Positions 10,134-28,064 of a stretch of 28,499 nt of DNA are shown here, piece by piece. A program made the translations under genes and the position numbers. Source of the stretch: a virus (Duplodnaviria; Caudoviricetes); IMG/VR virus record IMGVR_UViG_3300033076_001405, positions 1 through 28,499 of that record. One strand, written 5' to 3'. Position 1 is the stretch's first letter. Every line of letters starts with the position of its first letter. Under the pieces are notes generated by a model, which was not told the DNA's origin, did no database searches, and saw only the letters and a list, made by a program, of their open reading frames with translations.

Positions 10134-11858
10134 TTATCCAGGGAATGTAGCACCTGTTGGTAAGATGTTGAAATCTAGATAAATAAATTCTGCTGTTTTA
10201 GTTGGTTGGATATAAATCTGACCTACCATCTGATTTCTATCAACTACATCAGCTGGGTTATTACTATCATCCATAATTACTTTGAAAGCATATAAACCTT
10301 GTTTTTGTTGTACTGTTTCTAAGTACGGGTTTACAGCTGCTAAAAACGCATTTCTTGTAGCTATTGTATTTTGTTCGAATACTAAGTTTTGAGCTACTCC
10401 TGAAATATAGTTTTTAAGAGCAATTAATAAACGACGAACATTTACACGATCAAGAGCAGATGCTTTTTTCTGTAATGTTTTCTGACCATATACTACTACT
10501 CCATTTGCAGGGAATGTAGCTATTGGGTTTACAGCTCCTGTATAAAGGTTATCTCTTTGTGTTTGAGTTAATTTAGTTTCAGCTCTAACTACAAGATTTA
10601 AACCACCTCTATTAATACCAGCTGGTGCAAACCATGGTTCAGATACTGTATCGTTGTAAGCATATACACCTGGGATTACTGTAGATGCTGGGATCCATAC
10701 TAATTGACCTGAATCTGGTTCTGTAATTTGAACCCAAGGCCAATAAGAAGCAGCATATGATGTATTTCTAGTTCCTGCTTGTTGAGTAACAGCGGCAACA
10801 CTTGAACTATAAGCTACTAAATCAGCTACATAAATATTATCACCTCTATTTTGAGTATTGTTAATAATAGTAGTCATTACACCACCGTAATTAGTATCAG
10901 AGTTATATAAACCAGGAGTTACTAATACATTAAATTTGTAAGCATCAGCATTTGCTAAAGCAGCAATAGAAGCTGTATAATTATCTGCTACTAATCCTTG
11001 AGTATTTGTTGATGAAATTTTATCATAAAATAATGCTCCAGCTTTTACCGCACCCGTACCGGCTCCAAAAGATCCACTAGTATTAGCAGGCATATAATCA
11101 GCATATGCTGGGTTTGGATAACCACCGTTAGTAAAGTAATTAGGCATTAAGAAATCTTGGTCAATAGATGATACGTAAACATATCTTGATTGACGAGGAT
11201 AATTACCATATGTTTGAACAGCAAATGTGTTAGGATCAAGAGCTTCATATTGATCACCTATTACTTTAGAAATAAAGTTTGGTTGAGTTGGGTCTAAAGA
11301 TAAATTAGTCCAAGTTTCTAGAATAATTGGGTTATTAGTAGTATCATTACCTTGTCTAATCAATAAATCAAAAGTACCAGATGCGGTATTTGAACTTTGA
11401 ATTTGCCATCTAAGGTTATAATTAGAACCTGATGCTAATGAACCACTAGCGTCTAATGAACTTGAACTGTTCATAATAGCACCTACAGAAACAGTAGTTA
11501 AAGTAAATGCACTACCACTAGCAATAGCACCGGCTGTACTTCCTGAAACAAATGAAGATGTAGCGCTTGTATAAGAACCACTGACTACTCTAGTTACTAA
11601 TAAAGTTTCACCCCCGTTTGCGAAGAAATTATAAGCTGCAATAGATGTAAAGAATGAATATACATTACTAGCACTTAAAAAAGTTGAACCAAATTTGCTT
11701 GTATAATCACTATACGAAGTAACAATAGTTGGAACTTCTTTAGGTCCTATTACTGTAGGTCCAACAATAGCTGCACTATTTCTAATAGGTCCAGTAGATA
11801 CAAATGAGTTATCATTTTCTCTTGCAAGTACACCTGGGGATATTAATGTTTCTGCCAT
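10134..11858 (-). CDS. gp18: Tail sheath protein (T4 gp18-like)
   Basis: SPGVLAREND, YAASYWPWV, PWFAPAGINRG, VNPIATFP, GQKTLQ, LDRVNVRRLL, FEQN, IQPTKTAEFI are hallmark sheath motifs. Confidence 0.96.
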   Translation of the reverse strand: MAETLISPGVLARENDNSFVSTGPIRNSAAIVGPTVIGPKEVPTIVTSYSDYTSKFGSTFLSASNVYSFFTSIAAYNFFANGGETLLVTRVVSGSYTSATSSFVSGSTAGAIASGSAFTLTTVSVGAIMNSSSSLDASGSLASGSNYNLRWQIQSSNTASGTFDLLIRQGNDTTNNPIILETWTNLSLDPTQPNFISKVIGDQYEALDPNTFAVQTYGNYPRQSRYVYVSSIDQDFLMPNYFTNGGYPNPAYADYMPANTSGSFGAGTGAVKAGALFYDKISSTNTQGLVADNYTASIAALANADAYKFNVLVTPGLYNSDTNYGGVMTTIINNTQNRGDNIYVADLVAYSSSVAAVTQQAGTRNTSYAASYWPWVQITEPDSGQLVWIPASTVIPGVYAYNDTVSEPWFAPAGINRGGLNLVVRAETKLTQTQRDNLYTGAVNPIATFPANGVVVYGQKTLQKKASALDRVNVRRLLIALKNYISGVAQNLVFEQNTIATRNAFLAAVNPYLETVQQKQGLYAFKVIMDDSNNPADVVDRNQMVGQIYIQPTKTAEFIYLDFNILPTGATFPG

Positions 11859-11906: not shown

Positions 11907-12146
11907 TCAGGTTTTTACAAATGTACCTGTATTTAGGTTTATTATTCCTTCTCCATATTTTTGTTGTAACAAAACACCTAATTTTTCTTGAATGGTGTTA
12001 ATTTCTTGTAACTGGTTTAAAAGATTTAATTTTTTAGTTTGGTATTCTGTTTCTAGATGTCCGAAACTATTAATTAATAAATCTTTTTTACTTTTTAAAT
12101 CTAATATAGTTGATAACTCTTCTGGGGATAAAATAATATTATCCAT
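11907..12146 (-). CDS. Small coiled-coil protein (79 aa from MDNIIL...), possible fibre chaperone
   Basis: ATG at 12146 lies 1 nt after the heptosyltransferase stop, a more plausible start than 12182. Heptad-like Leu pattern, then KYGEGIINLNTGTF. Confidence 0.7.
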   Translation of the reverse strand: MDNIILSPEELSTILDLKSKKDLLINSFGHLETEYQTKKLNLLNQLQEINTIQEKLGVLLQQKYGEGIINLNTGTFVKT

Positions 12147-12147
12147 A

Positions 12148-13347
12148 TTAATAAATATTAAGGACTTTATTAAGAGATTCAATCACTCTAAAAGGTTTGA
12201 TTGTTTTTGTACATTCAAATTGTTTGTATGTATTTTTGTTTTCAGGACACCATTCCCAATCACCTGGGTTGAGCCAATGTTTATTAAAACATCCTGTACA
12301 TACATTAGTATCATAATTAAAAATACGCTCACAATCAGTAAATTCACTATAAGGTAAACTAAATCCTGAAATTAAAATTACACGGGTACCAATAGACCAT
12401 GCTAGCCAAGATAACCCACTACCAACACCTATAAAAGCATCAGCATATTTTATATCGGTCATTCTATCTTCAAGTGGATAATTTCCGGTTTTATCAATTA
12501 CATTTTTTAAGGTTCCACCTAATTTAGAATCATGCCATTTATCTCCTAATTTTTCATGAGTAATCATTACTACTTTGTAACCTTGCTCATTTAAATAATC
12601 AATTACAGCTTGCCAACCACCCTTATGATTCCAATACTTAGCATGAGCAGAAGCATGAGGAGCAATAACTACATATTTACCATCAATTTGTTTAGTTTTA
12701 GTAGGTATTGTTATTTTAGGTTTAATTTCATTATATTTTAATCCTAAAACAGATGATGCTGTTTCACCAAGAGGATGTTGTTTAAAATCAATTGGAATTT
12801 TTGTTTTAACAACCTCTTTATTATCATAAAACCAACCTATATTATACATGGCATATAAATCATGTACTTCAGTTCCAGGACTAACAAATTCTAATTCAGG
12901 ATATTCTTTTTCAAACCATTCATTATGGAATGTAGAACAAATTACGTGACATTGATGTTTTTTTCTAAATTCATCAATAAAAGGAAACCATGCTAATGTA
13001 TCTCCAATAGCTGATGATTCTAAATGAATATAAACTCTTTTATTTTGAGCATTATAATCATGTTCAAATACTAATTCATTATTTTCTTTATCATATACTT
13101 CAATTCTCCATTCTATAAAATATTCAATACCGGGTTGGGTCCACATATTGTTTGTAATTTCGGTTTCGTAAATGATTTTATCATTTACTTTATCGATAAA
13201 TCTAATAATATATTTTTTAGATTCAGAACCTAATATTTCTAAAAATGCCCCTTTTAAAAAATGGAAATTGAATTTATTTACATCTTTTTTATAAGGTAAA
13301 TTTAATTGAATAATATTATTATACTCTTTAATTAAGACTTCTTTCAT
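12148..13347 (-). CDS. Aah/TibC-like (autotransporter strand-loop-strand) protein O-heptosyltransferase homologue, GT-B fold, with 4-Cys iron finger
   Basis: N-terminal beta module (FNFHFLKGAFLEI...YFIEWRIEV), SSAIGDTLAWFPFIDEFRKKHQC, AKYWNHKGGW, FIGVGSGLSWLAWSIG..LISGFS..YSEF, and CTGC-x13-WCP-x9-FEC. Confidence 0.88.
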   Translation of the reverse strand: MKEVLIKEYNNIIQLNLPYKKDVNKFNFHFLKGAFLEILGSESKKYIIRFIDKVNDKIIYETEITNNMWTQPGIEYFIEWRIEVYDKENNELVFEHDYNAQNKRVYIHLESSAIGDTLAWFPFIDEFRKKHQCHVICSTFHNEWFEKEYPELEFVSPGTEVHDLYAMYNIGWFYDNKEVVKTKIPIDFKQHPLGETASSVLGLKYNEIKPKITIPTKTKQIDGKYVVIAPHASAHAKYWNHKGGWQAVIDYLNEQGYKVVMITHEKLGDKWHDSKLGGTLKNVIDKTGNYPLEDRMTDIKYADAFIGVGSGLSWLAWSIGTRVILISGFSLPYSEFTDCERIFNYDTNVCTGCFNKHWLNPGDWEWCPENKNTYKQFECTKTIKPFRVIESLNKVLNIY

Positions 13348-14278
13348 ATATAACTTGTAATTCTTTTGAACGATTAAACCATGATAATTCTCTAGATGTA
13401 TTGAAAACTCTTTGTCTATATGATTCCCAATTTAATACAATATCTTTTAAACCTTTATCCATTTCAAATATATCTCTAGGAGCTCTCCAAGCACCATGAA
13501 AATCTGTTTCTCTTTCCCAATCAGCAATAATAGGTAAACCAGCAGCTGCTGCTTCAACCATTGTTAAATTAGGATGTCCAGCTTCTAACATAGTTGGATG
13601 GACAAAAATATCATGTTCATGATATAATTCTAACAATTTAGTATTAGGAGTATCAAATACCAAATTTAATTTAGAATAATTTAACATCCATAAATGATCA
13701 TTAAAAAATCTTTTATTATCTGAGGGGCCTGCTATGGTTATTTCAAGATTATTTAGCATTGCTAGTCCTAAACCATATGTAAATCCTTTTCTATCAAATG
13801 TAGCATTGCCTGCTAAACCATTATTTGCTACCATCAATAATTTTGGATTTATTGGTGTAGGTTTTTTGATTGGATAAAAATCATTTGTGTTTACACCATG
13901 AGAAAAATATACACATTTTGGATGTTCAAAATAATCAACTAAAAAACGAGCAGGCATTAAAGATATAACAGAACCTTCAATTGCTTTTAGATTTTCCTTA
14001 TAAACATAAGAATCTTTACCATAATGATAAGCATGATGATCATGTAATTGATATATATAAGGAATCCCTCTTTCAGCTAATTGGATTGCTAAGTTAGCAA
14101 CATGGCAATGTACAATATCATATTCTCCTGGTTGGATATGAGAGGTCATTTTAATATCTACTTCATGCCCTAATTCTCTTAAATTATTATAAAATTCCCA
14201 TACTATTTTTTCAATAGCTCCCCATGCTGGAGGAGGAATAGGGATACCACAACCTGGATCTACTTGGCAAATTTTCAT
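13328..14278 (-). CDS. Glycosyltransferase family 4 (GT-B)
   Basis: PIPPPAWGAIEKIV, GHEVD, DIVHCH, HGVNTNDFYP, RKGF, HDIFVHPTMLEAGHPNLTMVEAAAAGLPII. Confidence 0.9.
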   Translation of the reverse strand: MKICQVDPGCGIPIPPPAWGAIEKIVWEFYNNLRELGHEVDIKMTSHIQPGEYDIVHCHVANLAIQLAERGIPYIYQLHDHHAYHYGKDSYVYKENLKAIEGSVISLMPARFLVDYFEHPKCVYFSHGVNTNDFYPIKKPTPINPKLLMVANNGLAGNATFDRKGFTYGLGLAMLNNLEITIAGPSDNKRFFNDHLWMLNYSKLNLVFDTPNTKLLELYHEHDIFVHPTMLEAGHPNLTMVEAAAAGLPIIADWERETDFHGAWRAPRDIFEMDKGLKDIVLNWESYRQRVFNTSRELSWFNRSKELQVIYERSLN

Positions 14279-16935
14279 TCTTGAACGAATATTAATGGGT
14301 TATCAGTTTTACTATCTTTAATGGTTTGTTCTATAATACTAAAACCAGGAAGGTGTTTTGTGTATATTTTTTCGGCTGTTCCTATTTTTAATTGAGCAAC
14401 ATTACACATCCATAAATCAATAGCATCCCAAGGAAGTATTTCTAATAATTCTTTAATTTTTTTAGTTTTAAGATTATTAATCAAATATGATTGTGCTGGG
14501 ATAAATGGGGTTACATTTGTATAAATGTCTTCAATTTTAGGGCCATTTAAATTTCTATCTTGCCATGGATTACCAAAACCAATTACATCCATATCTGTTT
14601 GGTAGGATAATCTATTAAATCTGATTAAGGATTCATATAATTCTTGATAACTGCTATCAATTATAACATCACCTTCAACAATTAATACAAAATCATATTC
14701 ATTATTATCTTCAGCACATATAGCATTTTTATGTGCTAAATAACACCCATAATGCCCAGGGGCTAATTTATAATATCCAGGTTTATCTTGAACATCTTGA
14801 GGTCTAGCGCAAGTATCTACTGGGGGTAATTCTGTCCAAATTTTATTTATTCTTTGTTCGTATTTAATACCTGTTTTACTACAAAAATCTTTAATATTTT
14901 CTACTGAACGAATTTCTTTAGGATTAGTTTCGGGTTCAGTAACCAAATGCATTAATTTAATTTTTGTATTTGGGTTTTTTATTTCTAATTTACCATTAAA
15001 TTCCAAGTTTGTTACCTGAATGGTAATTTTTTTAAGGATTTTATGATAATTGCTAATTTTATATTCGACTTCCATTCCTTCTTCATATGAAAGAACTTTA
15101 TAATAATCTATTTTACTTTCTACATTTAGTTCATCAAAGAATACTTCATTTTTATCTTTATCACGTACTGTAATTTGAATAAGTCTTGATTCTTTACTAT
15201 TAGAAATTCTAATATAAGGAGCAAATGTATTTGGAATATTAGTAGGTAAAACTGTAAAGTATTCTACTTGAGAAAAATCATGATGGTTAAAAGTTTCTAA
15301 ACTTTTTTGTTCAAACAATTCAATATCTTCAAAATGAATTTTATCTGAACTTCTTTTAAATATATGATACCACATATTTTCAAGTCCATTACTTTCACTT
15401 CCTAATTGATAACGTAAATGTTCATATTCTTCAGCATTAAATATTTGATGAACATGATCAAAAAAGAAATCAGAATTAACAGCACAAAAATAAGTATGTA
15501 AAGCATCACCTTCCGAAGCTTTATATTTACCAAAATATGCTTTTTTGTTATCTAATATTTTTGAAATTTTATCTATGTGATGTACCGATTGTATTGTGTA
15601 ATCAAAATTAAGGAAAAATAATTTTTTATATCCTAAATTTTTAGCTAACGCAGCTCCATTTACGTAATTAGAATGTACACTAGGTCCATGATAAACATCA
15701 TTATCATTTCCTCTTAAATTAATATATACTTTATGGTCTAAATGGTCAGCCCAATAATTACAATAATAAGTATGTTTTGTTAAAATATTATTATTATCTA
15801 CAACAACATAATCTGCTTTTGCTTCAATTTCAAAAGGAACAGGAATATGAGATGTAACTAATACTTTAGTTCCTCGAGCATGAATTGAATCTATTGTTTT
15901 TAATGTAGTTTCAATTACAGCATCACTTATTGGAAATGTCGATAAAATAAATATTTCTTCATTTGGATTTGATTCTTTAATACCTAATTTTTCAGCAATT
16001 TTATCACAATTAGTTTTAAAGTCATCAAACTTTAAATAATTAATAGTTTCAAATTTATCAAAATAATCTAAATAAACAGGAAGATTATATATTAAAGTAG
16101 GAATTTGATAAGAAATTGCTTCTCTAATAACTAAAGGCATTGTTTCTTTATCTTTATCATGTCCACGAGATGTAAATAAAAATAAATCCATTGCCTGATA
16201 AAAAGCATCTACATCTGAGCGTTCATTCCACCAGGTTAAATTTGATGGTTGATTTTGAGCTAAAGGTTCCCAGTACCATTTAAAATTATCGGCTCTGTTT
16301 CCTAAACTATGAAATTCTACATCTGGGAATGATTTGGCGTATTCAAAAAATTCTGCTTGGTTTTTTCTTGATGTATATAAACCAACGTGTAAAACATGTT
16401 TTTTATTAGGATCTAATCCCAATTTAAGTAATGCTTCTTTTCTATCAGGGCGATTAATATATTCAATTGGATATTCTACTAATACTTTAGGAATATTTAA
16501 ATCTTTATATTGTTGAATTTGCCAATTTGATACAAACATAAATTTATCCGGGAAAAATCGTTTGTTATCTGTATCAAAAGATGAATCATGAGATGTTTCT
16601 ACTAATGAATAATTTCGATTTTGCACGTATATTTGACGAGCAATTTCATCATCCATAAAGAATTCGGGAATTTCCTCTAAATGAATTATATCCGGTTGAA
16701 TTTGTTGTATAATGTTAATTAATTCATGTTTATTATCACCTAAGGTAAAGAATTTATTAGAATCAATTAAATTTACTATTTTATTTCTTGTAACTACAAG
16801 AACACCTCCTGTACAATCTACCCATTCTACAAGATAAATTTCAAATTCATCTTTAAGTAATTCTATTTTTTTAGTTAAATATTGTGGGAGTCCGCCTGTT
16901 GATAAATGTGGGGCAATAAATAACAATTTTTGCAT
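14275..16935 (-). CDS. Multidomain glycosyltransferase: N-terminal GT4-like domain, uncharacterised central domain, C-terminal GT25-like domain (886 aa)
   Basis: PHLSTGGLPQY, HVGLYTSRKNQ, DLFLFTS..ETMPLVIREAIS (GT4). GHYGCYLAHKNAI...VLIVEGDVII...AQSYLI...DAIDLWM (GT25/LgtB-like). Confidence 0.85.
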   Translation of the reverse strand: MQKLLFIAPHLSTGGLPQYLTKKIELLKDEFEIYLVEWVDCTGGVLVVTRNKIVNLIDSNKFFTLGDNKHELINIIQQIQPDIIHLEEIPEFFMDDEIARQIYVQNRNYSLVETSHDSSFDTDNKRFFPDKFMFVSNWQIQQYKDLNIPKVLVEYPIEYINRPDRKEALLKLGLDPNKKHVLHVGLYTSRKNQAEFFEYAKSFPDVEFHSLGNRADNFKWYWEPLAQNQPSNLTWWNERSDVDAFYQAMDLFLFTSRGHDKDKETMPLVIREAISYQIPTLIYNLPVYLDYFDKFETINYLKFDDFKTNCDKIAEKLGIKESNPNEEIFILSTFPISDAVIETTLKTIDSIHARGTKVLVTSHIPVPFEIEAKADYVVVDNNNILTKHTYYCNYWADHLDHKVYINLRGNDNDVYHGPSVHSNYVNGAALAKNLGYKKLFFLNFDYTIQSVHHIDKISKILDNKKAYFGKYKASEGDALHTYFCAVNSDFFFDHVHQIFNAEEYEHLRYQLGSESNGLENMWYHIFKRSSDKIHFEDIELFEQKSLETFNHHDFSQVEYFTVLPTNIPNTFAPYIRISNSKESRLIQITVRDKDKNEVFFDELNVESKIDYYKVLSYEEGMEVEYKISNYHKILKKITIQVTNLEFNGKLEIKNPNTKIKLMHLVTEPETNPKEIRSVENIKDFCSKTGIKYEQRINKIWTELPPVDTCARPQDVQDKPGYYKLAPGHYGCYLAHKNAICAEDNNEYDFVLIVEGDVIIDSSYQELYESLIRFNRLSYQTDMDVIGFGNPWQDRNLNGPKIEDIYTNVTPFIPAQSYLINNLKTKKIKELLEILPWDAIDLWMCNVAQLKIGTAEKIYTKHLPGFSIIEQTIKDSKTDNPLIFVQE

Positions 16936-16988: not shown

Positions 16989-19900
16989 TTATCCGTTAGT
17001 ATAATATATTGTATCAGGATTAAATCTTATAGTATAATAAGATCCATTAATAGCAATTACTTGTCCTACTCCTTTTACTAATGAAGCTGATGTTGTAGGA
17101 GCAACACCTGTAACGTTACCTGTTGTTTCAGATACATAAACTGGATCTCCTGCTATTGATACGTTATTAACATATGTTGTACTATATATACCATCAATTA
17201 ATACTGAAATTGCTGAAGATCCTGCTCCTGCTGTTTTTAGTACTATTCCTAATAAATAATCAGTAGTTGCTCCTGAATTAGCATCTGCTAATGCCCATGT
17301 TCCTGTACCGGCTTTATAATATACTAATTGACCTGCACTCATAGCTGAATCAGATAATTGACCTGAAATTATTGTTCCTTGAACAAATAAAGATGCTTGG
17401 TTTGGACTAGTAAGTATTGAAGTTGTTCCTGGGTAAAATTTAGCTGTTAATGCAAGACCTGGTCCACTAGTATCACCTGTTATAAGAGAGTCATAAACTG
17501 GATCCCAGTATACTAAATCACTAGAGAAACTTACTTCTCCATTTACGTCTAATAATCTACCAGGACTTGCAGTGTTAATACCTAATCTACTATTAGTAAC
17601 ATCAGCATATAAGAATGATACACTTTGTACTGTTGTTGTACTTGTAGTTCTTACTAAGTAGTTAGGTTGGTTAGTAAATACACCACCACTAATACCGGAT
17701 GTACCGTTAATTGATTGACCACTTGTACCTGCTACACCACTTGTACCATTTGTTCCATTTATTCCTGAGGTACCACTAGCACCACTTGCACCACTATTAC
17801 CGTTGTTACCATTTGAACCATTAGATCCATTAGTTCCTGATACTCCTGATAATCCTCCGGCTCCATTAGCACCATTATTACCATTAGATCCATTTGAACC
17901 ATTGGTTCCTGAAATTCCTGAGTTTCCAGAGGCACCATTGTTTCCAGCATTACCTGAAGAACCATTTGAACCTGTAGTACCACTTACTCCTGATACTCCT
18001 GAGTTACCTGCGTTTCCATTGTTACCATTAGATCCTGAGGAACCATTTGTACCAGATACTCCTGACAATCCTGAGTTTCCGTTATTTCCTGCATTTCCAT
18101 TAGATCCGTTTGAACCTGAAGTTCCTGATACTCCACTTACTCCTGAGTTACCTGAGTTACCATTGTTTCCTGAGTTACCTGAAGAACCGTTTGAACCTGT
18201 AGTTCCTGATACTCCACTTACTCCTGAGTTTCCTGCATTTCCATTGTTACCATTAGATCCTGAGGAACCATTTGTACCAGATACTGCACTTATACCATTT
18301 CCACCAACAATACCACTTGATCCTGCTGAACCTGATGAACCTGAGGTTCCACTTACAGCAGAAGCTCCTGAGTTACCAGCGTTTCCGTTGTTTCCATTAG
18401 AACCATTTGAACCATTAGTTCCTGATATTCCTGAGTTACCTGAGTTACCATTGTTTCCAGCATTTCCTGAAGTACCATTTGAACCTGAGGTACCATTAGT
18501 ACCGCTTACTCCTGATACTCCTGAAGCTCCGTTGTTACCATTGTTTCCGTTTGAACCATTTGAACCATTGGTTCCTGAAATTCCTGAGTTACCAGAATTA
18601 CCATTAGCTCCTGAGTTTCCTGAAGTACCGTTTGAACCTGAAGTTCCGTTAGTACCGCTTACACCGCTATTTCCTGAAGCTCCATTGTTTCCTGAGTTTC
18701 CTGAAGTACCGTTTGAACCTGAGGTACCATTAGTACCGCTTACTCCTGATACTCCTGAGTTTCCTGAGTTACCTGAATTTCCTGAAGTACCGTTTGAACC
18801 AGTTGTACCTGAAGTACCACTTACTCCTGAATTTCCAGAAGCACCAGCATTACCATTAGATCCATTTGAACCATTAGTTCCACTTAAACCTGATACACCA
18901 CCGGCTCCATTAGCACCATTAGCACCATTAGATCCATTTGAACCATTAGTTCCACTTATTCCTGATACACCTGAGTTTCCGTTGTTTCCTGCGTTTCCGT
19001 TTGATCCATTAGATCCAGATGTTCCTGATACTCCACTTACTCCTGAGTTTCCTGAGTTACCAGCGTTACCTGAAGTACCATTTGAACCTGAAGTTCCGTT
19101 TGTTCCTGATACAGCACTTGCACCTGAATTTCCTGCAGCTCCTGAAGTACCATTAGATCCTGATGAACCTGAAGTAGCACTTATTGTACTAACTCCTGCT
19201 ACAGCAGCACCTCCTGAAGTACCGTTAGATCCTGTTGAACCTGAAGTTCCTGAAACTCCTGAGTTACCTGAGTTACCATTAGCACCATTGTTTCCTGAAG
19301 TACCATTAGAACCAGTAGTACCATTAGTACCACTTACTCCTGATACACCTGAGTTTCCAGCGTTTCCTGAAGTACCATTAGATCCTGTTGAACCTGAAGT
19401 TCCACTTACAGCACTAACACCATTAGTACCTGCATTACCTGAAATACCATTTGAACCTGAAGATCCAGATGTTCCTGAGAGTGCACTTACACCTGAAGTA
19501 CCAGCTACACCATTTATACCATTTGAACCATTAGATCCTGATGAACCTGAAGTAGCACTTATTGTACTAATACCGGCTGTTGCTGCTACACCTGATGAAC
19601 CGTTAGTTCCAGTTGAACCTGAAGTTCCAGAAGTTGCGCTTAAACCTGAGTTTCCAGCATTTCCTGAGGTACCATTTGAACCTGTTGAACCACTAGTTCC
19701 ACTTACAGCTGATGCTCCATTATTTCCAGCATTTCCATTTGAACCTGAAGATCCTGAAGTACCTGAAGTTGCACTTAATCCTGAGTTTCCTGCGTTTCCA
19801 TTTGAACCATTTGAACCTGATGTACCACTTGTTCCACTTAATGCGCTAGCACCATTATTTCCAGCTACACCTGAAGAACCTGTAGTTCCTGATGAACCAC

Positions 19901-22900
19901 TAGATCCACTTACAGCTGATGCTGTACTTTGACCTGAAGTTGCTGCTGCTCCTGAAGTACCTGATGAACCTGTTGATCCACTAGTACCAGATGTTGCACT
20001 TAATCCTGAGTTTCCTGCGTTTCCATTGTTACCATTAGATCCACTTGAACCTGTTGTACCGGAAGTAGCACTTAAACCACTGTTTCCTGCTATACCTGCA
20101 GCACCATTTGAACCATTTGAACCTGAAGTACCTGAAGTACCACTTATATTTGAAGTTCCACTGTTTCCAGCGTTACCATTTGTACCATTTGAACCTGATG
20201 AACCTGAGGTTCCACTTAATGCACTTGCTCCTGAATTCCCAGCATTACCTGATGAACCTGAAGTACCTGATGAACCTGAAGATCCTGAAGTTCTACTTAA
20301 TCCAGAATTACTTGTATCACCTGAAGAACCATTAGTACCAGTTGAACCACTTGTACCTGAAGTACCACTTATATTTGAAGTACCATTAGCACCTGCATTA
20401 CCATTTGAACCATTTGAACCTGATGTGCCACTTGTTCCACTTAATGCACTTGCCCCACTATTTCCAGCAGCACCTGACGAACCGTTAGTTCCTGATGAAC
20501 CTGAAGTTCCACTTGTAGCACTTAATCCTGAATTTCCGGCTACACCTGCATTACCAGATGAGCCATTTGTACCAGTTGATCCTGAAGTTCCTGATGTTGC
20601 ACTTAATCCTGAGTTTCCAGCTACTCCAGCATTTCCACTTGAACCGTTTGAACCTGAAGTACCTGAAGTACCGCTTATGTTTGAAGTTCCACTTGCACCT
20701 GCAGCTCCATTTGAACCTGATGAACCTGTAGAACCTGATGTTCCGCTTATGTTTGAGGTACCACTATTTCCAGCAGCACCTGAAGAACCATTTGTTCCCG
20801 TTGAACCTGAAGTTCCACTTGTAGCACTTAATCCTGAATTTCCAGCAGCACCTGCAGATCCGTTTGAACCTGAAGAACCACTAGTGCCTGAAAGTGCACT
20901 TGCTCCATTATTTCCAGCTACACCATTAGTTCCTGATGAACCAGTTGTACCTGAAGTACCACTTAAACCACTATTTCCAGCAGCACCTGATGAACCATTT
21001 GAACCTGAAGAACCACTAGTACCTGAAAGTGCACTTGCTCCATTATTTCCAGCATTACCTGAGGAACCATTAGAACCTGATGTTCCACTTGTTCCACTTA
21101 TATTTGAAGTACCACTGTTTCCAGCAGCACCGTTTGAACCATTAGATCCTGTTGAACCTGAAGTTCCACTTGTAGAGCTTAAACCACTATTTCCAGCAGC
21201 ACCTGTTGATCCTGAAGTTCCTGATGAACCTGAAGTACCTGATGTACTTGATAAAGCACTTAATCCATTAGAACCAGCATTTCCTGAGGTACCATTTGAA
21301 CCTGAGGTTCCGCTTGTTCCACTTATATTTGAAGTTCCATTATTTCCGGCAGCACCTGATGAACCGTTTGAACCTGAAGATCCTGAAGTACCTGATAAGG
21401 CACTTAAACCTGAGTTTCCGACTACACCATTTGAACCGTTTGAACCTGAAGATCCAGTTGTACCTGAAGTAGCACTTAAACCACTATTTCCTGCTACACC
21501 AGCATTTCCTGAGGAACCGTTTGAACCAGATGTACCTGAAGTACCACTTATATTTGAAGTACCGCTGTTACCAGCAGCACCATTTGAACCGTTTGAACCT
21601 GAAGATCCTGAAGTACCTGATAAGGCACTTAAACCATTGTTACCAGCATTTCCAGATGAACCATTAGTTCCTGAAGAACCAGATGAACCTGATGCTTGGC
21701 TTAAACCATTTGTTCCTATATTTCCTGAAGTTCCTGCTGAACCACTTGAACCTGATGTTCCACTTAAATTACTTGAACCATTACTTCCTGCTACTCCTGT
21801 AGTTCCTGCTGATCCACTTGAACCTGAAGTCCCGGCTACTTGGCTAGTACCATTTGTACCAGCAGCTCCTGATGATCCGTTTGAACCTGAAGATCCGGAT
21901 GAACCACTTAATCCGTTTACACCGTTAAATCCATTTAATCCTGATGAACCACTAGTACCTGAAGTAGCACTTAAACCACTTGAACCAGCAGCACCTGATG
22001 AACCATTTGTTCCTGTTGATCCTGAAGTTCCAGAAAGTGCACTTAAACCATTTGTTCCTGCTGCTCCACTAGAACCATTAGATCCAGTTGAACCTGAAGT
22101 GCCAGATAAAGCACTTACACCATTAGTACCAGCAGCACCACTTGAACCGTTTGAACCTGAAGTACCACTTGTAGCGCTTAAACCACTATTTCCAGCATTA
22201 CCTGTTGATCCATTTGAACCTGAAGATCCAGATGTTCCTGAAAGTGCACTTACACCTGAAGTACCAGCAGCACCGCTTGAACCATTTGAACCTGTAGAAC
22301 CTGAAGTACCTGAAAGAGCACTAGCTCCACTATTTCCGGCTGCACCATTTGAACCATTAGTTCCTGTTGAACCTGAAGTTCCTGAAGTAGCACTTAATCC
22401 TGAATTTCCAGCGTTACCTGCAGCACCATTACTACCGTTTGAACCTGAAGTACCTGATGTACCGCTTATGTTTGAAGTACCGCTGTTTCCAGCAGCACCA
22501 TTTGAACCGTTTGAACCTGAGGTACCTGAAGTACCTGAAAGAGCACTAGCTCCACTATTTCCAGCATTACCTGAGGAACCATTTGAACCAGATGAACCTG
22601 AAGTTCCAGATAATGTACTTAAACCATTTGTTCCTGCTGCTCCACTAGAACCATTTGAACCTGTTGAACCTGAAGTTCCACTCAATGCGCTTAATCCTGA
22701 ATTACCAGCTGCTCCTGAAGAACCATTTGAACCCGTAGAACCTGAAGTACCAGATAAAGCACTTACACCATTAGTACCAGCAGCACCACTTGAACCGTTT
22801 GAACCTGAAGTTCCACTTGTTCCACTTAAGGCACTTATACCATTTGTTCCTGCTGCTCCACTAGAACCATTTGAACCGGTTGAACCTGAAGTTCCACTTA

Positions 22901-25259
22901 CAGCAGAAGCTCCTGAATTACCAGCATTACCACTTGAACCATTTGTTCCAGTTGAACCTGAAGTTCCACTTGTAGCACTTAATCCTGAATTACCAGCGGC
23001 ACCATTTGAACCATTTGAACCTGAGGTTCCACTTGTTCCACTTAATGCGCTAGCACCATTATTTCCAGCGGCGCCTGAAGTACCATTTGAACCTGAAGAA
23101 CCAGATGTTCCTGAGAGTGCACTAGCACCATTACTTCCAACAGCACCTGAAGTACCATTAGAACCTGTAGAACCACTAGTTCCACTTATATTTGAAGTAC
23201 CGCTGTTACCTGCGTTTCCTGAGGAACCGTTTGAACCAGTTGTACCTGAAGTACCTGATAAGGCACTTATACCATTAGTACCAGCAACTCCTGAAGATCC
23301 ATTTGAACCTGAAGTACCTGATGTACCTGAAAGATTACTTATTCCGTTAGTTCCAGCTATACCACTTGAACCATTTGAACCAGATGTACCTGAAGTACCA
23401 CTTATATCTGAAGAGCCACTGTTTCCAGCAACACCATTTGTACCATTTGAACCTGAAGTACCAGATGTACCTGATAAAGCACTAACACCAGCATTACCAT
23501 CAACACCTGAAGAGCCATTGGATCCACTTGAACCTGATGAACCTGAAGTTGAACTTAAACCAGCAGTACCTGCATTTCCTGAAGTACCATTAGATCCACT
23601 TGAACCTGAAGTTCCACTTAATGCACTTAAACCATTAGTACCTGCATTTCCAGATGAACCATTAGATCCTGAAGAACCACTTGTGCCTGATAATGCACTT
23701 AAACCGTTTGTCCCGGCTGCTCCACTAGAACCATTTGAACCTGTTGAACCTGATGTTCCACTCAATGCGCTAGCACCACTATTTCCAGCATTACCTGAGG
23801 AACCATTAGTTCCTGAAGAACCTGATGAACCAGAAGTTGCACCTAAACCAGAAGTTCCAGCATTACCTGAAGCTCCATTTGAACCAGATGAACCTGAAGT
23901 TCCGGAAGTAGCACTAATACCTGAAGTACCTGCGTTTCCTGATGTACCATTAGATCCAGTTGTACCGGAAGTACCTGAAGTTGCACTAGCACCGCTATTT
24001 CCTGCTACTCCTGAAGAACCATTAGTTCCTGTTGAACCTGAAGTACCGCTTATATTTGAAGTACCGCTACTTCCTGCAGCACCACTTGAACCATTTGAAC
24101 CTGTTGAACCTGAAGTACCTGAAAGTGCACTAGCACCTGAATTACCATTATTACCACTTGAACCATTAGTTCCTGATGAACCTGAGGATCCAGATGTAGC
24201 ACTAGCACCACTATTTCCAGCTGCTCCTGAGGAACCGTTTGAACCAGTTGTACCTGAAGTACCTGATAAAGCACTTAAACCACTACTTCCAATAGCTCCT
24301 GATGAACCATTAGTTCCTGATGAACCTGAAGTACCACTTAATGTACTTACACCATTTGTTCCGGCAGCTCCTGATGAACCTGCTGAACCTGTTGATCCTG
24401 AGGTACCAGATATTGCACTTGCTCCATTGTTCCCAGCATTTCCACTAGAACCATTAGAACCAGTTGAACCGGACGTACCTGATACTGCTGAAATACCTGA
24501 ATTTCCAGCATTACCTGATGATCCATTAGTTCCAGTTGAACCACTTGTACCAGATGTTGCACTAAGTCCACTGTTTCCAGCATTTCCACTAGAACCATTA
24601 GTTCCAGTAGTACCTGAAGTACCACTTGTTTTTGAGTCTCCACTAGTACCTGCATTACCTGATGATCCATTAGTTCCAGTTGAACCTGATGTTCCTGAAG
24701 TAGAACTTAAACCACTGTTTCCAGCAACACCATTTGAACCATTAGTACCTGTTGTACCTGAAGTTCCGCTTGATGCACTTGCTCCTGAATTTCCATTATT
24801 ACCTGAAGAACCAGCTGTACCTGAAGAACCAGCTGTACCTGAGGTACCTGCTACTCCGGCAGTACCATTAGTACCAGAAACACCACTTGTACCTGAGGTT
24901 GAATTTACATATCCAACAACTCCTGTTGTTGGGTTATAAGTTACAACATAAGGACCTGATTGAACAGGTAAAGTTTGTAAAATAATTGGTTGAGAAGATC
25001 CTGAAATTACTAAAGAACCAGTAATTACTGCGGATCCTGAAAAAGGGAAACCAACTCCTTGAACAAAGATAGTTACACCATCATTTGTTCCCATAGGAGC
25101 AAAACCGGAAACGGTTGCTGAACCGCTAATATTAATGTAAGGTACACTAGCACTTACTAATGTACCATTTTGATAAATATCAATTGTACCACCACCATTT
25201 GTGGGATCTATATTATATACGCCTACCGGAACCTGGTCTAGGAATCTTACTTGAGCCAT
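16989..25259 (-). CDS. Giant Gly-X-X repeat virion fibre protein (2756 aa), collagen-like or polyglycine-II-like
   Basis: About 120-aa N-terminal domain (FPFSGSAVITGSLVISGS), about 2400 aa of G-X-X repeats, fibre-type RLGINTASPGRLLDVNG segment and a globular C-terminal domain. Located in the structural module with the late motif upstream. Confidence 0.85.
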   Translation of the reverse strand: MAQVRFLDQVPVGVYNIDPTNGGGTIDIYQNGTLVSASVPYINISGSATVSGFAPMGTNDGVTIFVQGVGFPFSGSAVITGSLVISGSSQPIILQTLPVQSGPYVVTYNPTTGVVGYVNSTSGTSGVSGTNGTAGVAGTSGTAGSSGTAGSSGNNGNSGASASSGTSGTTGTNGSNGVAGNSGLSSTSGTSGSTGTNGSSGNAGTSGDSKTSGTSGTTGTNGSSGNAGNSGLSATSGTSGSTGTNGSSGNAGNSGISAVSGTSGSTGSNGSSGNAGNNGASAISGTSGSTGSAGSSGAAGTNGVSTLSGTSGSSGTNGSSGAIGSSGLSALSGTSGTTGSNGSSGAAGNSGASATSGSSGSSGTNGSSGNNGNSGASALSGTSGSTGSNGSSGAAGSSGTSNISGTSGSTGTNGSSGVAGNSGASATSGTSGTTGSNGTSGNAGTSGISATSGTSGSSGSNGASGNAGTSGLGATSGSSGSSGTNGSSGNAGNSGASALSGTSGSTGSNGSSGAAGTNGLSALSGTSGSSGSNGSSGNAGTNGLSALSGTSGSSGSNGTSGNAGTAGLSSTSGSSGSSGSNGSSGVDGNAGVSALSGTSGTSGSNGTNGVAGNSGSSDISGTSGTSGSNGSSGIAGTNGISNLSGTSGTSGSNGSSGVAGTNGISALSGTSGTTGSNGSSGNAGNSGTSNISGTSGSTGSNGTSGAVGSNGASALSGTSGSSGSNGTSGAAGNNGASALSGTSGTSGSNGSNGAAGNSGLSATSGTSGSTGTNGSSGNAGNSGASAVSGTSGSTGSNGSSGAAGTNGISALSGTSGTSGSNGSSGAAGTNGVSALSGTSGSTGSNGSSGAAGNSGLSALSGTSGSTGSNGSSGAAGTNGLSTLSGTSGSSGSNGSSGNAGNSGASALSGTSGTSGSNGSNGAAGNSGTSNISGTSGTSGSNGSNGAAGNAGNSGLSATSGTSGSTGTNGSNGAAGNSGASALSGTSGSTGSNGSSGAAGTSGVSALSGTSGSSGSNGSTGNAGNSGLSATSGTSGSNGSSGAAGTNGVSALSGTSGSTGSNGSSGAAGTNGLSALSGTSGSTGTNGSSGAAGSSGLSATSGTSGSSGLNGFNGVNGLSGSSGSSGSNGSSGAAGTNGTSQVAGTSGSSGSAGTTGVAGSNGSSNLSGTSGSSGSAGTSGNIGTNGLSQASGSSGSSGTNGSSGNAGNNGLSALSGTSGSSGSNGSNGAAGNSGTSNISGTSGTSGSNGSSGNAGVAGNSGLSATSGTTGSSGSNGSNGVVGNSGLSALSGTSGSSGSNGSSGAAGNNGTSNISGTSGTSGSNGTSGNAGSNGLSALSSTSGTSGSSGTSGSTGAAGNSGLSSTSGTSGSTGSNGSNGAAGNSGTSNISGTSGTSGSNGSSGNAGNNGASALSGTSGSSGSNGSSGAAGNSGLSGTSGTTGSSGTNGVAGNNGASALSGTSGSSGSNGSAGAAGNSGLSATSGTSGSTGTNGSSGAAGNSGTSNISGTSGSTGSSGSNGAAGASGTSNISGTSGTSGSNGSSGNAGVAGNSGLSATSGTSGSTGTNGSSGNAGVAGNSGLSATSGTSGSSGTNGSSGAAGNSGASALSGTSGTSGSNGSNGNAGANGTSNISGTSGTSGSTGTNGSSGDTSNSGLSRTSGSSGSSGTSGSSGNAGNSGASALSGTSGSSGSNGTNGNAGNSGTSNISGTSGTSGSNGSNGAAGIAGNSGLSATSGTTGSSGSNGNNGNAGNSGLSATSGTSGSTGSSGTSGAAATSGQSTASAVSGSSGSSGTTGSSGVAGNNGASALSGTSGTSGSNGSNGNAGNSGLSATSGTSGSSGSNGNAGNNGASAVSGTSGSTGSNGTSGNAGNSGLSATSGTSGSTGTNGSSGVAATAGISTISATSGSSGSNGSNGINGVAGTSGVSALSGTSGSSGSNGISGNAGTNGVSAVSGTSGSTGSNGTSGNAGNSGVSGVSGTNGTTGSNGTSGNNGANGNSGNSGVSGTSGSTGSNGTSGGAAVAGVSTISATSGSSGSNGTSGAAGNSGASAVSGTNGTSGSNGTSGNAGNSGNSGVSGVSGTSGSNGSNGNAGNNGNSGVSGISGTNGSNGSNGANGANGAGGVSGLSGTNGSNGSNGNAGASGNSGVSGTSGTTGSNGTSGNSGNSGNSGVSGVSGTNGTSGSNGTSGNSGNNGASGNSGVSGTNGTSGSNGTSGNSGANGNSGNSGISGTNGSNGSNGNNGNNGASGVSGVSGTNGTSGSNGTSGNAGNNGNSGNSGISGTNGSNGSNGNNGNAGNSGASAVSGTSGSSGSAGSSGIVGGNGISAVSGTNGSSGSNGNNGNAGNSGVSGVSGTTGSNGSSGNSGNNGNSGNSGVSGVSGTSGSNGSNGNAGNNGNSGLSGVSGTNGSSGSNGNNGNAGNSGVSGVSGTTGSNGSSGNAGNNGASGNSGISGTNGSNGSNGNNGANGAGGLSGVSGTNGSNGSNGNNGNSGASGASGTSGINGTNGTSGVAGTSGQSINGTSGISGGVFTNQPNYLVRTTSTTTVQSVSFLYADVTNSRLGINTASPGRLLDVNGEVSFSSDLVYWDPVYDSLITGDTSGPGLALTAKFYPGTTSILTSPNQASLFVQGTIISGQLSDSAMSAGQLVYYKAGTGTWALADANSGATTDYLLGIVLKTAGAGSSAISVLIDGIYSTTYVNNVSIAGDPVYVSETTGNVTGVAPTTSASLVKGVGQVIAINGSYYTIRFNPDTIYYTNG
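17685..24900 (-). repeat. Degenerate coding tandem repeat: 9-nt G-X-X triplets grouped into about 72-nt (24-aa) units
   Basis: Consensus GTS GST GSN GSS GAA GNS GLS ALS with 21- and 27-residue variants; synonymous codons vary between units. Confidence 0.95.
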
Positions 25260-26834: not shown

Positions 26835-28064
26835 TTATCCTATAAAAATTGTCATTGGTACATTATTAATTTCAGCAACACGAGCTATTGATTCTGCTGC
26901 TCTTCTTTCAAGCAATGCTTGACGAGAAGTTTGATCAAAATATTCTCTCAATCTGGTGATTAATGCTTCTTTTTCTGCTTCTGCTGAAGATACTAAAGAA
27001 TCACCATTTAAAGTTACTTCTGCTCCTGGAATAGGAACTGTTGCATATTTATTTCTTACTAAACCTAATACTTCTTTAGCTTTAGCTAATGTATATTCAA
27101 ATATCCAACTTCTACCTATTGAATTAATTTGAGAATATGTTGGATTTTGATAAGGTACATTAGATGTATTTGAAATTTTATTAGTTCCATTAGCAAAAGC
27201 AGCATCTACTCTATCTTGAATTTTGATAAAATCAAATACTAAATAATGTCCATACCCTAAACCACCACCATCATCAATTCCTAAATCAAAATCACCAGTT
27301 CCAGGAATTGGAAATACTGAAATGATGTTATTAACTATGTTAAATGTATAATTAGAAAGTGTTACTGTGTTATTCATTTCAATTGCTTGAATGTTTTGCA
27401 TAGTAAAACTTGTTGGCATCATTAAGTAATTGGAATACCCATAACCTAGACCATAAACACCAGCTGCAGGAACACCTCCTAAACCATTACCAGCTCCTGT
27501 TCCTAACATAGGAGCATACATTTGACTAACTGCTGGAGGTGGTTGATAAAATACATTTTTAATTTCAATACCTCCAACAATACCATTAGCTTCTGCCCAA
27601 GCTGATAAATCATAGTCTTGAACACCTGGTTGAAGGACTAATTGACCTTTAAACCAAGTTACATTACCACCTGCTCCTGCTTCTTCACCATATTGTTGAG
27701 ATAATCTAACAATACTAGAAAATGTAGGAGTAACAACGTCTGTGTTAACATCCACAGATGTTGGGGCGCCTTCTAAAGATAAGTAATTATCTCGAGTTTG
27801 AAAAGCATATAATTCATTACCATATATGGTAACAGCTTCTTCAAATCCTGCCCAAAAATTAATATCTTGTAATTCTACGTTTTCAATAGGATAACCTAAA
27901 CGTAAAGCACAAAAATTAGCTACTTTATTAGCATCTGCTTGGAATTGAGAATCATTATCATAAAATCCAAAAGGTGTTGGTGGCGGCCAAGCCCCAGACA
28001 CATAGTATGATTGTGATACTTGTGCAAATGAAGATGAACCAGGCCATATTGGAATGTTTGCCAT
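26835..28064 (-). CDS. Neck / head-tail adaptor protein (T4 gp13-like)
   Basis: LRLGYPIENVEL and WIFEYTLAKAKEVLGLVRNKY..PGAEVTLNGD motifs typical of gp13. Confidence 0.82.
   Translation of the reverse strand: MANIPIWPGSSSFAQVSQSYYVSGAWPPPTPFGFYDNDSQFQADANKVANFCALRLGYPIENVELQDINFWAGFEEAVTIYGNELYAFQTRDNYLSLEGAPTSVDVNTDVVTPTFSSIVRLSQQYGEEAGAGGNVTWFKGQLVLQPGVQDYDLSAWAEANGIVGGIEIKNVFYQPPPAVSQMYAPMLGTGAGNGLGGVPAAGVYGLGYGYSNYLMMPTSFTMQNIQAIEMNNTVTLSNYTFNIVNNIISVFPIPGTGDFDLGIDDGGGLGYGHYLVFDFIKIQDRVDAAFANGTNKISNTSNVPYQNPTYSQINSIGRSWIFEYTLAKAKEVLGLVRNKYATVPIPGAEVTLNGDSLVSSAEAEKEALITRLREYFDQTSRQALLERRAAESIARVAEINNVPMTIFIG

Follow-up and report, generated by a model that had tools for sequence, protein, structure and literature searches.

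The analysed window is a whole virus record of 28.5 kb, with all of its long genes on the minus strand. We take it as phage DNA because its ORFs match tail sheath, tube, tape measure, baseplate and head-tail adaptor proteins in profile searches. The gene order begins with the head-tail adaptor (26835-28064, minus strand; phrog_211, E 1.2e-9, and context) and two further conserved genes, followed by a 2756-residue fibre, an 886-residue glycosyltransferase, a 316-residue GT4-type glycosyltransferase, the enzyme considered here and a 79-residue protein. The contractile tail sheath (10134-11858, minus strand; PF04984, PF17482 and context), tube, tape measure and baseplate genes come next, and the glycosyltransferase cassette is placed between the neck and sheath genes. 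From the fibre to the sheath, the intergenic gaps are 53, -4, -20, 1 and 48 nt, and we therefore read these genes as one operon. Promoter-like sites occur at chance level (42 observed vs 42.3), a terminator was not found, and the Rfam and tRNA scans returned no matches.

The largest relatives are T4-like phages of 150-164 kb. The sheath gene is present in 77 of the 86 related loci with enough downstream DNA. Two observations hint at a Bacteroidota host: a T9SS type B sorting domain above the cut-off in the relative G048, and a copy of the enzyme with 59% identity whose phage-like contig was binned with Winogradskyella. Ribosomal S21, tried as a host marker, is carried by none of five relatives. 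The relative G001 contains QueC, QueD-like, radical SAM and FolE genes (L063, 12718-18056), which suggest a 7-deazaguanine DNA modification pathway, as well as a weak Acb1-like match in the same stretch.

The ORF at 12148-13347 (minus strand) encodes a protein of 399 residues and is confirmed as a member of the Aah/TibC family, a GT9-type, iron-finger protein O-glycosyltransferase. It matches the TIGR04414 profile over positions 5-374 of 374 with 323.9 bits against a cut-off of 200, and two TibC sequences are the only matches in the PDB sequence search (E 1.5e-56). The more general GT9 profile PF01075 is matched with E 2.6e-12. An AlphaFold2 model, obtained from a 40-row alignment, has a mean pLDDT of 90 and comprises an N-terminal all-beta module and a GT-B core. 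The module (residues 25-97; 13057-13275, minus strand) is delimited by strands in the model and aligned with the TibC barrel. The predicted fold agrees with TibC (4RAP/4RB4) at TM-scores of 0.79-0.81, compared with 0.37-0.50 for the GT9 LPS enzymes WaaC, WaaF and a Veillonella GT9. An earlier note, made from the DNA letters, had assigned the ORF to the Aah/TibC family with an N-terminal beta module and had suggested a profile search and a comparison with the TibC structure; both agree with that assignment. The note had also considered that the best matches might be LPS-core GT9 enzymes. This is not what is found, as LPS heptosyltransferase models give the enzyme 25-33 bits against cut-offs of 170-467. 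An identity as WaaC, WaaF or WaaQ was rejected on these scores, on TM-scores of at most 0.50 and on a tree that excludes these enzymes with a support of 100/100.

The motifs singled out in the note are present as well: AIGDTLAW begins at residue 113 and SGLSWLAW at residue 310, and four cysteines span exactly 12300-12211. The TibC residues reported as tested experimentally include Asp110, Lys230, Arg286, Trp305 and Cys339/342/358/370 (PMC4358343). In the alignment, Asp116 (13000-13002, minus strand) is the equivalent of the catalytic base Asp110, while Lys230, Arg286 and Trp305 correspond to K237, R295 and W314. Phe368 is kept as F377 and Thr226 is conservatively replaced by S233. Among 161 family domains, the Asp is found in 157 (with a gap in the other 4), the Lys in 154 and the Trp in 156. 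The Arg286 position is kept in the phage enzyme, but in only 54 of the 161 domains. The stereoselectivity residue, Pro300 in TibC and Ser294 in Aah, is a Gly in the phage enzyme. The iron finger corresponds to Cys350, Cys353, Cys367 and Cys379 (12211-12300, minus strand), which align with TibC Cys339, 342, 358 and 370 and are invariant in the 40-row alignment. It is assigned by its cysteine motif, and zinc is a possible bound metal. The Cys339 position is lacking or uncovered in 15 of the 161 representative domains, and one family member (L445, 6328-7446) is without the finger cysteines at the aligned positions.

The dodecameric state that the earlier note gives for Aah/TibC is not supported for the phage enzyme. 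TibC has a beta-hairpin thumb with a hydrophobic tip (Phe265, Val266), and its F265D and V266D mutants are reported as inactive dimers (PMC4358343). This feature is absent from the phage enzyme. The segment that replaces the thumb (residues 264-276; 12520-12558, minus strand) carries D269 and K270 at the F265 and V266 positions and is modelled by AlphaFold2 as a helix (residues 270-276). As the ring-forming thumb is not kept, the alignment and the model make a dodecameric ring doubtful for the phage enzyme. By pattern match, a TibC-type thumb occurs in 2 of the 161 domains of the representative search.

The start of the enzyme gene is overlapped by 20 nt by the 316-residue GT4-type glycosyltransferase (13328-14278, minus strand), which matches PF00534 at the cut-off and has a homologue in 69 of the 73 related loci with enough upstream DNA. 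The 886-residue multidomain glycosyltransferase (14275-16935, minus strand), homologues of which occur in 53 of 56 loci, contains a GT4 domain (PF00534, E 3.4e-10), a middle part without an assigned domain and a weakly GT25-like C-terminus (PF01755, E 0.0014, below the cut-off). In relatives the enzyme is often fused to GT4 domains, with 129 of 149 representatives exceeding 500 residues, and the cassettes add FkbM methyltransferases or a carbamoyltransferase. Directly after the enzyme lies the gene of a conserved 79-residue protein (11907-12146, minus strand), which matches no family at the cut-off; 42 of 58 loci contain it, with 47 copies in total. In some relatives a copy immediately follows the fibre gene, and we would guess that the protein is a fibre chaperone.

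The candidate acceptor is the 2756-residue fibre (16989-25259, minus strand), recognized by collagen and tail-fibre profile matches and by synteny, and encoded three genes from the enzyme in the same operon. Its repeat region (17688-24893, minus strand) consists of 800 triplets, 713 of them Gly-initial, and contains 698 Ser, 271 Thr, 6 charged residues and no Pro. The repeat forms 70 units of 24 residues, each made up of seven Gly-X-Y triplets plus a single non-Gly triplet, which breaks the glycine register regularly over most of the length. The non-Gly triplet is flanked by near-invariant Ser residues (positions 21 and 24, in 68 of the 70 units). Unbroken Gly-X-Y runs of 83 and 63 triplets are located near the C-terminus of the fibre. 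Most relatives' fibres show the 24-residue period again. Related triplet fibres have open frames of 3,700 to more than 4,600 residues (L150, 2-13903; L119, 3833-14959; L166, 4412-15466). AlphaFold2 reached a pLDDT of 40 on the repeat, which may be a triple helix, a polyproline-II bundle or a solenoid. N-linked glycosylation of the fibre was rejected, since N-X-S/T sequons are not enriched (112, compared with 107.6 +/- 6.2 in register-keeping shuffles). Long ORFs on the plus strand over the repeat (17803-19932 and 20026-24939) are most likely shadows of the codon pattern.

The C-terminal region of the fibre (16992-17690, minus strand) is a predicted trimer with a capsid-cement-like end. The prediction for the last 276 residues scores 0.93, with 0.00 for the best control, a result that may stem from similarity to trimers of known structure. 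True homo-pairs attained the mark in 20 of 30 cases and single chains in 1 of 23. At least 71% of contacts are shared between the prediction runs, with a pLDDT of at least 83, and some Gly positions of the last triplets are in contact in the predicted trimer. PF09956 reaches 23.4 bits against a cut-off of 24, and phrog_122 matches with E 4e-4. Three of five close fibre homologues carry PF09956, and many relatives have a different C-terminus. Because the cement-like domain is swapped in many relatives, the fibre may attach either to the head or to the neck and tail. The gene position and the weak domain matches suggest that the fibre is located on the virion.

The association of the enzyme with this type of fibre extends to related viruses. 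In a set of 101 related viral loci with near-copies kept, 46 extend for 6 kb or more upstream, and 37 of these 46 include an ORF with Ser/Thr Gly-X-Y repeats. Nine loci have no triplet ORF nearby, and in all four of these that were checked the repeat lies further along the contig. A further contig of 17.6 kb (L053) encodes the enzyme in fused form and shows no match to the repeat. The linkage to the sheath gene is lost in 9 of 86 loci, and in at least six of these the enzyme gene faces the triplet-fibre gene.

In the reverse direction, we compared 50 contigs with Ser/Thr triplets (of 53 distinct contigs from the first 80 of 171 loci matching the pattern) with 49 control contigs (of 74 distinct contigs from the first 80 of 127 Gly-Pro-Gln loci). 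The enzyme scores over the cut-off in 25 of the 50 Ser/Thr-triplet contigs and in 1 of the 49 Gly-Pro-Gln collagen contigs (Fisher p 1.8e-8, a value that overstates independence because the contigs are related and the pattern was drawn from the present fibre, which favours its kin). Among contigs of at least 30 kb the counts are 20 of 33 and 1 of 20. The sole control contig with the enzyme has a large Ser/Thr repeat itself, with 266 triplet matches. The enzyme is absent in half of the repeat-bearing contigs, mostly short fragments, and a larger one (G032; 187 kb, 64% complete) has the repeat without the enzyme. A six-triplet search pattern failed to pick up the known fibre of G002, and its negative results are therefore uninformative.

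Upstream of the cassette at four loci (L032, L081, L088 and L090), the Ser/Thr fibre is separated from the glycosyltransferases by the gene of a Gly-Pro-Gln collagen fibre. In the phage Mel-JY01 (PP395634), a Ser/Thr triplet ORF (L057, 2-3049) runs off the record start and is annotated only from 2519. Opposite-strand ORFs are called over it, and the record names a Microcystis host and lists an RpsU gene.

To place the enzyme in its family, we used GTDB relatives. A first scan with the phage protein alone as query gave no match; a later one yielded 592 relatives. We took the best 80 and added four plasmid loci. The tree contains 82 of these 84 enzymes, two with short or split matches being left out, and 24 phage enzymes. 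For this selection of the best 80 of 592 relatives with the plasmid and phage enzymes, the family splits into two branches. The autotransporter branch comprises 20 enzymes beside AIDA-like repeat proteins, 16 without a called partner and none beside triplet tracts, and its members show TibC-like thumbs. Its sister branch comprises 34 enzymes with triplet neighbours, the 24 phage enzymes and 12 enzymes without a partner, and it is the branch in which the present enzyme falls. It has no AIDA neighbours, including among its 46 loci from the bacterial collections. With the thumb columns removed (31 rows) the split stays at 100/100. With an outgroup of LPS GT9 enzymes, the BAHT family forms one group (100/100) and the LPS enzymes fall outside; the two branches appear as sisters with weak support for the triplet branch (69/78). 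The AU test refuses a single clade of phage enzymes (p 8.5e-43), a sign that phages and bacteria have exchanged the gene. Given this scatter and the weak root separating the branches, we do not claim a donor for the transfer. At 50% identity, 904 clusters reach E <=1e-30 against the phage profile, both branches included.

Twelve of the sister-branch loci are low in GC and probably include binned phage contigs, and the other 34 are of chromosomal type. A (GTS)n/(GSS)n gene lies within 1.5 kb in 28 of these 34 loci, compared with 0 of 36 in the AIDA branch. The bacterial tract partners are mostly short, most have signal-peptide- or lipobox-like starts as judged by eye, and they fall into several visibly different protein types with only the tract in common. 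Tract proteins flank the enzyme at L421 (8986-9834), L442 (9912-10235), L450 (8489-8926) and L453 (8510-8953 and 11235-11855). Such pairs occur in Methylococcales, Polaromonas and Arenicellales-type genomes, and in four bacterial loci the gene immediately upstream of the enzyme encodes a DUF6502 protein. A Pfam scan covered 79 of the 138 ORFs within 5 kb in 13 bacterial loci, leaving aside the majority of the enzymes and tract proteins and some of the outer ORFs. The 79 scanned ORFs contain one other glycosyltransferase, a GT87, and no GT4. Since other glycosyltransferases are nearly absent among them, it is suggested that the enzyme itself acts on the tract, and the sister branch is likely to act on Gly-Ser/Thr-Ser tracts. 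The earlier note had proposed a virion protein as a new class of acceptor without naming the fibre at 16989-25259. The virion-protein part is supported by the candidate fibre in the same operon, while the class is not specific to phages, as free-living bacteria pair enzymes of this branch with (GTS)n proteins.

ADP-heptose is our best guess for the donor sugar, with a slight lean in its favour. The ADP-heptose contacts are mostly kept in the phage enzyme; the Gly at the residue 300 position leaves room for other sugars. No match to heptose-pathway families was found among the 18 ORFs scanned in the window, as the earlier note had stated, and none to an autotransporter, which it had also reported as missing nearby. 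Of 18 bacteria with a triplet-branch enzyme, 17 carry HldE-II (16 over the cut-off) and 17 a GmhA-like gene with E <=1e-50 (one over the cut-off). HldE-II is over the cut-off in 51 of 151 Flavobacteriales genomes. Among fourteen larger phage records, a strong GmhA-like gene is found in one and HldE-II-like genes, all below the cut-off, in five, and none of the five phage records that are at least 90% complete has GmhA. In G001 and G048, genes resembling HldE-I and HldE-II score below the cut-off, and the C-termini of these HldE-like proteins do not match the (F/L)XXGXSTT motif. As judged by GmhA and HldE, a phage-encoded ADP-heptose pathway was not found in the relatives, where the pathway genes are incomplete, and the donor would have to come from the host.

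Further sugar genes were seen elsewhere in the relatives. A second cluster lies far from the fibre in G001 (L064, 10498-20000, and L065, 403-3719) and in G048 (L503-L504). It contains GT4s, a GT2, a DegT aminotransferase, epimerases, RmlC, an HldE-I-like kinase and a nucleotide-sugar dehydrogenase. A phage cluster in G016 (L506, 4298-14734) has GmhA-like, NeuB-like, CMP-sugar synthetase-like, Gmd and Fcl genes.

We think it reasonably likely that the enzyme adds the first sugar, probably a host-made heptose, to Ser residues of the Gly-Ser/Thr-Ser repeats of the fibre. The family, the fold, the active-site and cysteine residues, the operon and the repeat pairing in phages and bacteria are the observations behind this reading. 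The fibre and the enzyme would be produced together in the host cytoplasm late in infection. Asp116 would activate the fibre Ser, with the ADP-sugar held by Lys237, Arg295 and Trp314, and the working enzyme may be smaller than, or unlike, the TibC ring. The neighbouring GT4 and GT25-like domains could then extend or decorate the glycan, as could methyl- and carbamoyltransferases in relatives. On the virion, the glycan may stiffen or solubilize a trimeric fibre that is free of proline and nearly of charge. At the rise per residue that we assume, 800 triplets would presumably give a fibre of up to about 0.7 micrometre. As to the purpose of the glycan, stabilization of the fibre, shielding and changed adhesion are conjecture. 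Among the points against this explanation is that the acceptors of TibC are beta-helix loops, a different fold from that of the phage fibre.

A neighbouring GT4 could instead add the first sugar, with the TibC-like enzyme extending or branching the glycan. GtfA-type enzymes add the first sugar to serine-rich repeat adhesins. The two GT4 domains are almost constant in the cassette (69/73 and 53/56 loci) and often fused to the enzyme, and sugar acceptors are what GT9 LPS enzymes use. However, TibC acts on bare peptides as described (PMC4358343), and in bacteria the enzymes of this branch have (GTS)n proteins as neighbours and no GT4 within the set of scanned ORFs, which makes this order of events unlikely. 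It is quite unlikely, too, that the target is not the fibre but the capsid, the sheath, another virion protein, or a host surface protein or LPS modified for superinfection exclusion. The triplet tract is the partner that follows the sister branch into unrelated bacteria, the enzyme gene faces a triplet-fibre gene in at least six of the nine loci with lost sheath linkage, and its fold and profile are far from those of WaaC and WaaF. On the other side, the enzyme gene is close to the sheath gene, which has Ser-rich stretches, and capsid and tail tube are glycosylated in mycobacteriophages (cited in PMC12619734). A superinfection-exclusion role was also proposed for pelagimyophage glycosyltransferases (PMC7029224), and glycosyltransferases that phages encode close to fibre genes have been interpreted as modifiers of the host surface.

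We consider a non-catalytic role as an iron-binding fibre chaperone improbable. Such a role is conceivable because the family member BimC is reported without transferase activity (PMC6439308) and because the thumb required for TibC activity is missing here. The active-site Asp, Lys and Trp are nevertheless kept in 157, 154 and 156 of the 161 domains, and the enzyme is embedded among, and fused to, sugar-modifying enzymes. Glycosylation of phage DNA, in the manner of the heptose-adding phage GT-B enzymes that act on 5hmC, is the most improbable of the readings. DNA heptosylation by phages exists, with kinase and nucleotidyltransferase partners (bioRxiv 2023.12.21.572611), and HldE-like halves are encoded at other genome positions in two relatives. 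The DNA-heptosylating enzymes are described there as resembling T4 beta-glucosyltransferase, whereas the present enzyme matches TibC and its gene sits in a structural operon.

With modification of the fibre by the TibC-like enzyme as the preferred reading, a wider proposal can be put forward tentatively, as one that may well not hold. The enzyme would be the type member of a large, thumb-less second subfamily of iron-finger enzymes that reads Gly-Ser/Thr-Ser tracts as a portable glycosylation tag, on sugar-stabilized, proline-free, sub-micrometre collagen-like phage fibres and on small exported proteins of free-living Proteobacteria. The BAHT family has been described as virulence enzymes acting on autotransporters, and here a diverse branch of it is found alongside another candidate acceptor, both in phages and in bacteria from the environment. 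If the fibre is indeed modified, virion glycosylation by phages would extend to large T4-like phages, and a stable collagen-like fibre could be built with no proline. The (GTS)n/(GSS)n tracts, similar to common Gly-Ser linkers, would then constitute a simple glycosylation tag. Cultured organisms with the system include the bacterium Methylobacter luteus IMV-B-3098, in which the enzyme has a 283-residue GTS protein as its neighbour, and the phage Mel-JY01.

In the literature accessible to us, in which subscription journals are poorly covered, we found no description of a phage Aah/TibC enzyme or of a triplet acceptor, and the gene tables of PMC12619734 might list such enzymes. Further background is given in PMC11461863, PMC7602432 and bioRxiv 2023.11.25.568672. 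Phage homologues with 41-44% identity are present in databases (UniProt A0A6J5SVC1, 'Glycosyltransferase Aah/TibC'; JGI names; Mel-JY01, PP395634) under automatic names that do not give an acceptor. In Mel-JY01 the domain lies inside a protein named 'methyltransferase FkbM'.

Several known systems bear comparison. In mycobacteriophages, virion proteins are glycosylated by enzymes that the phages encode, at the C-termini of capsid and tail tube proteins as cited (Freeman et al. 2023, cited in PMC12619734), whereas the present phage combines a TibC-type enzyme with a fibre that offers hundreds of Ser residues. BimC is likewise an iron-binding protein of the BAHT family, but is set apart by its description as non-catalytic and autotransporter-paired (PMC6439308). 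WaaC, WaaF and WaaQ share the GT-B fold and the PF01075 match (E 2.6e-12) with the enzyme, but differ from it in fold detail (TM 0.37-0.50), score far under their cut-offs and lie outside the BAHT group (100/100). The BAHT enzymes TibC and Aah, described for autotransporters (TIGR04414; PDB 4RAP, 4RB4; PMC4358343), come closest. The profile, the fold (TM 0.8), the beta module, the catalytic Asp, the Lys, Arg and Trp contacts and the four-Cys finger are alike, and so is the position of the gene near a Ser-rich repeat protein. Unlike them, the phage enzyme has a Gly-X-Y triplet fibre as partner and no autotransporter, a changed thumb tip, a Gly at the stereoselectivity position, a separate branch in the tree and an operon with further glycosyltransferases. 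It is an enzyme that would work like TibC and belongs to the TibC profile family, but fails two of its defining features, the thumb and the autotransporter partner.
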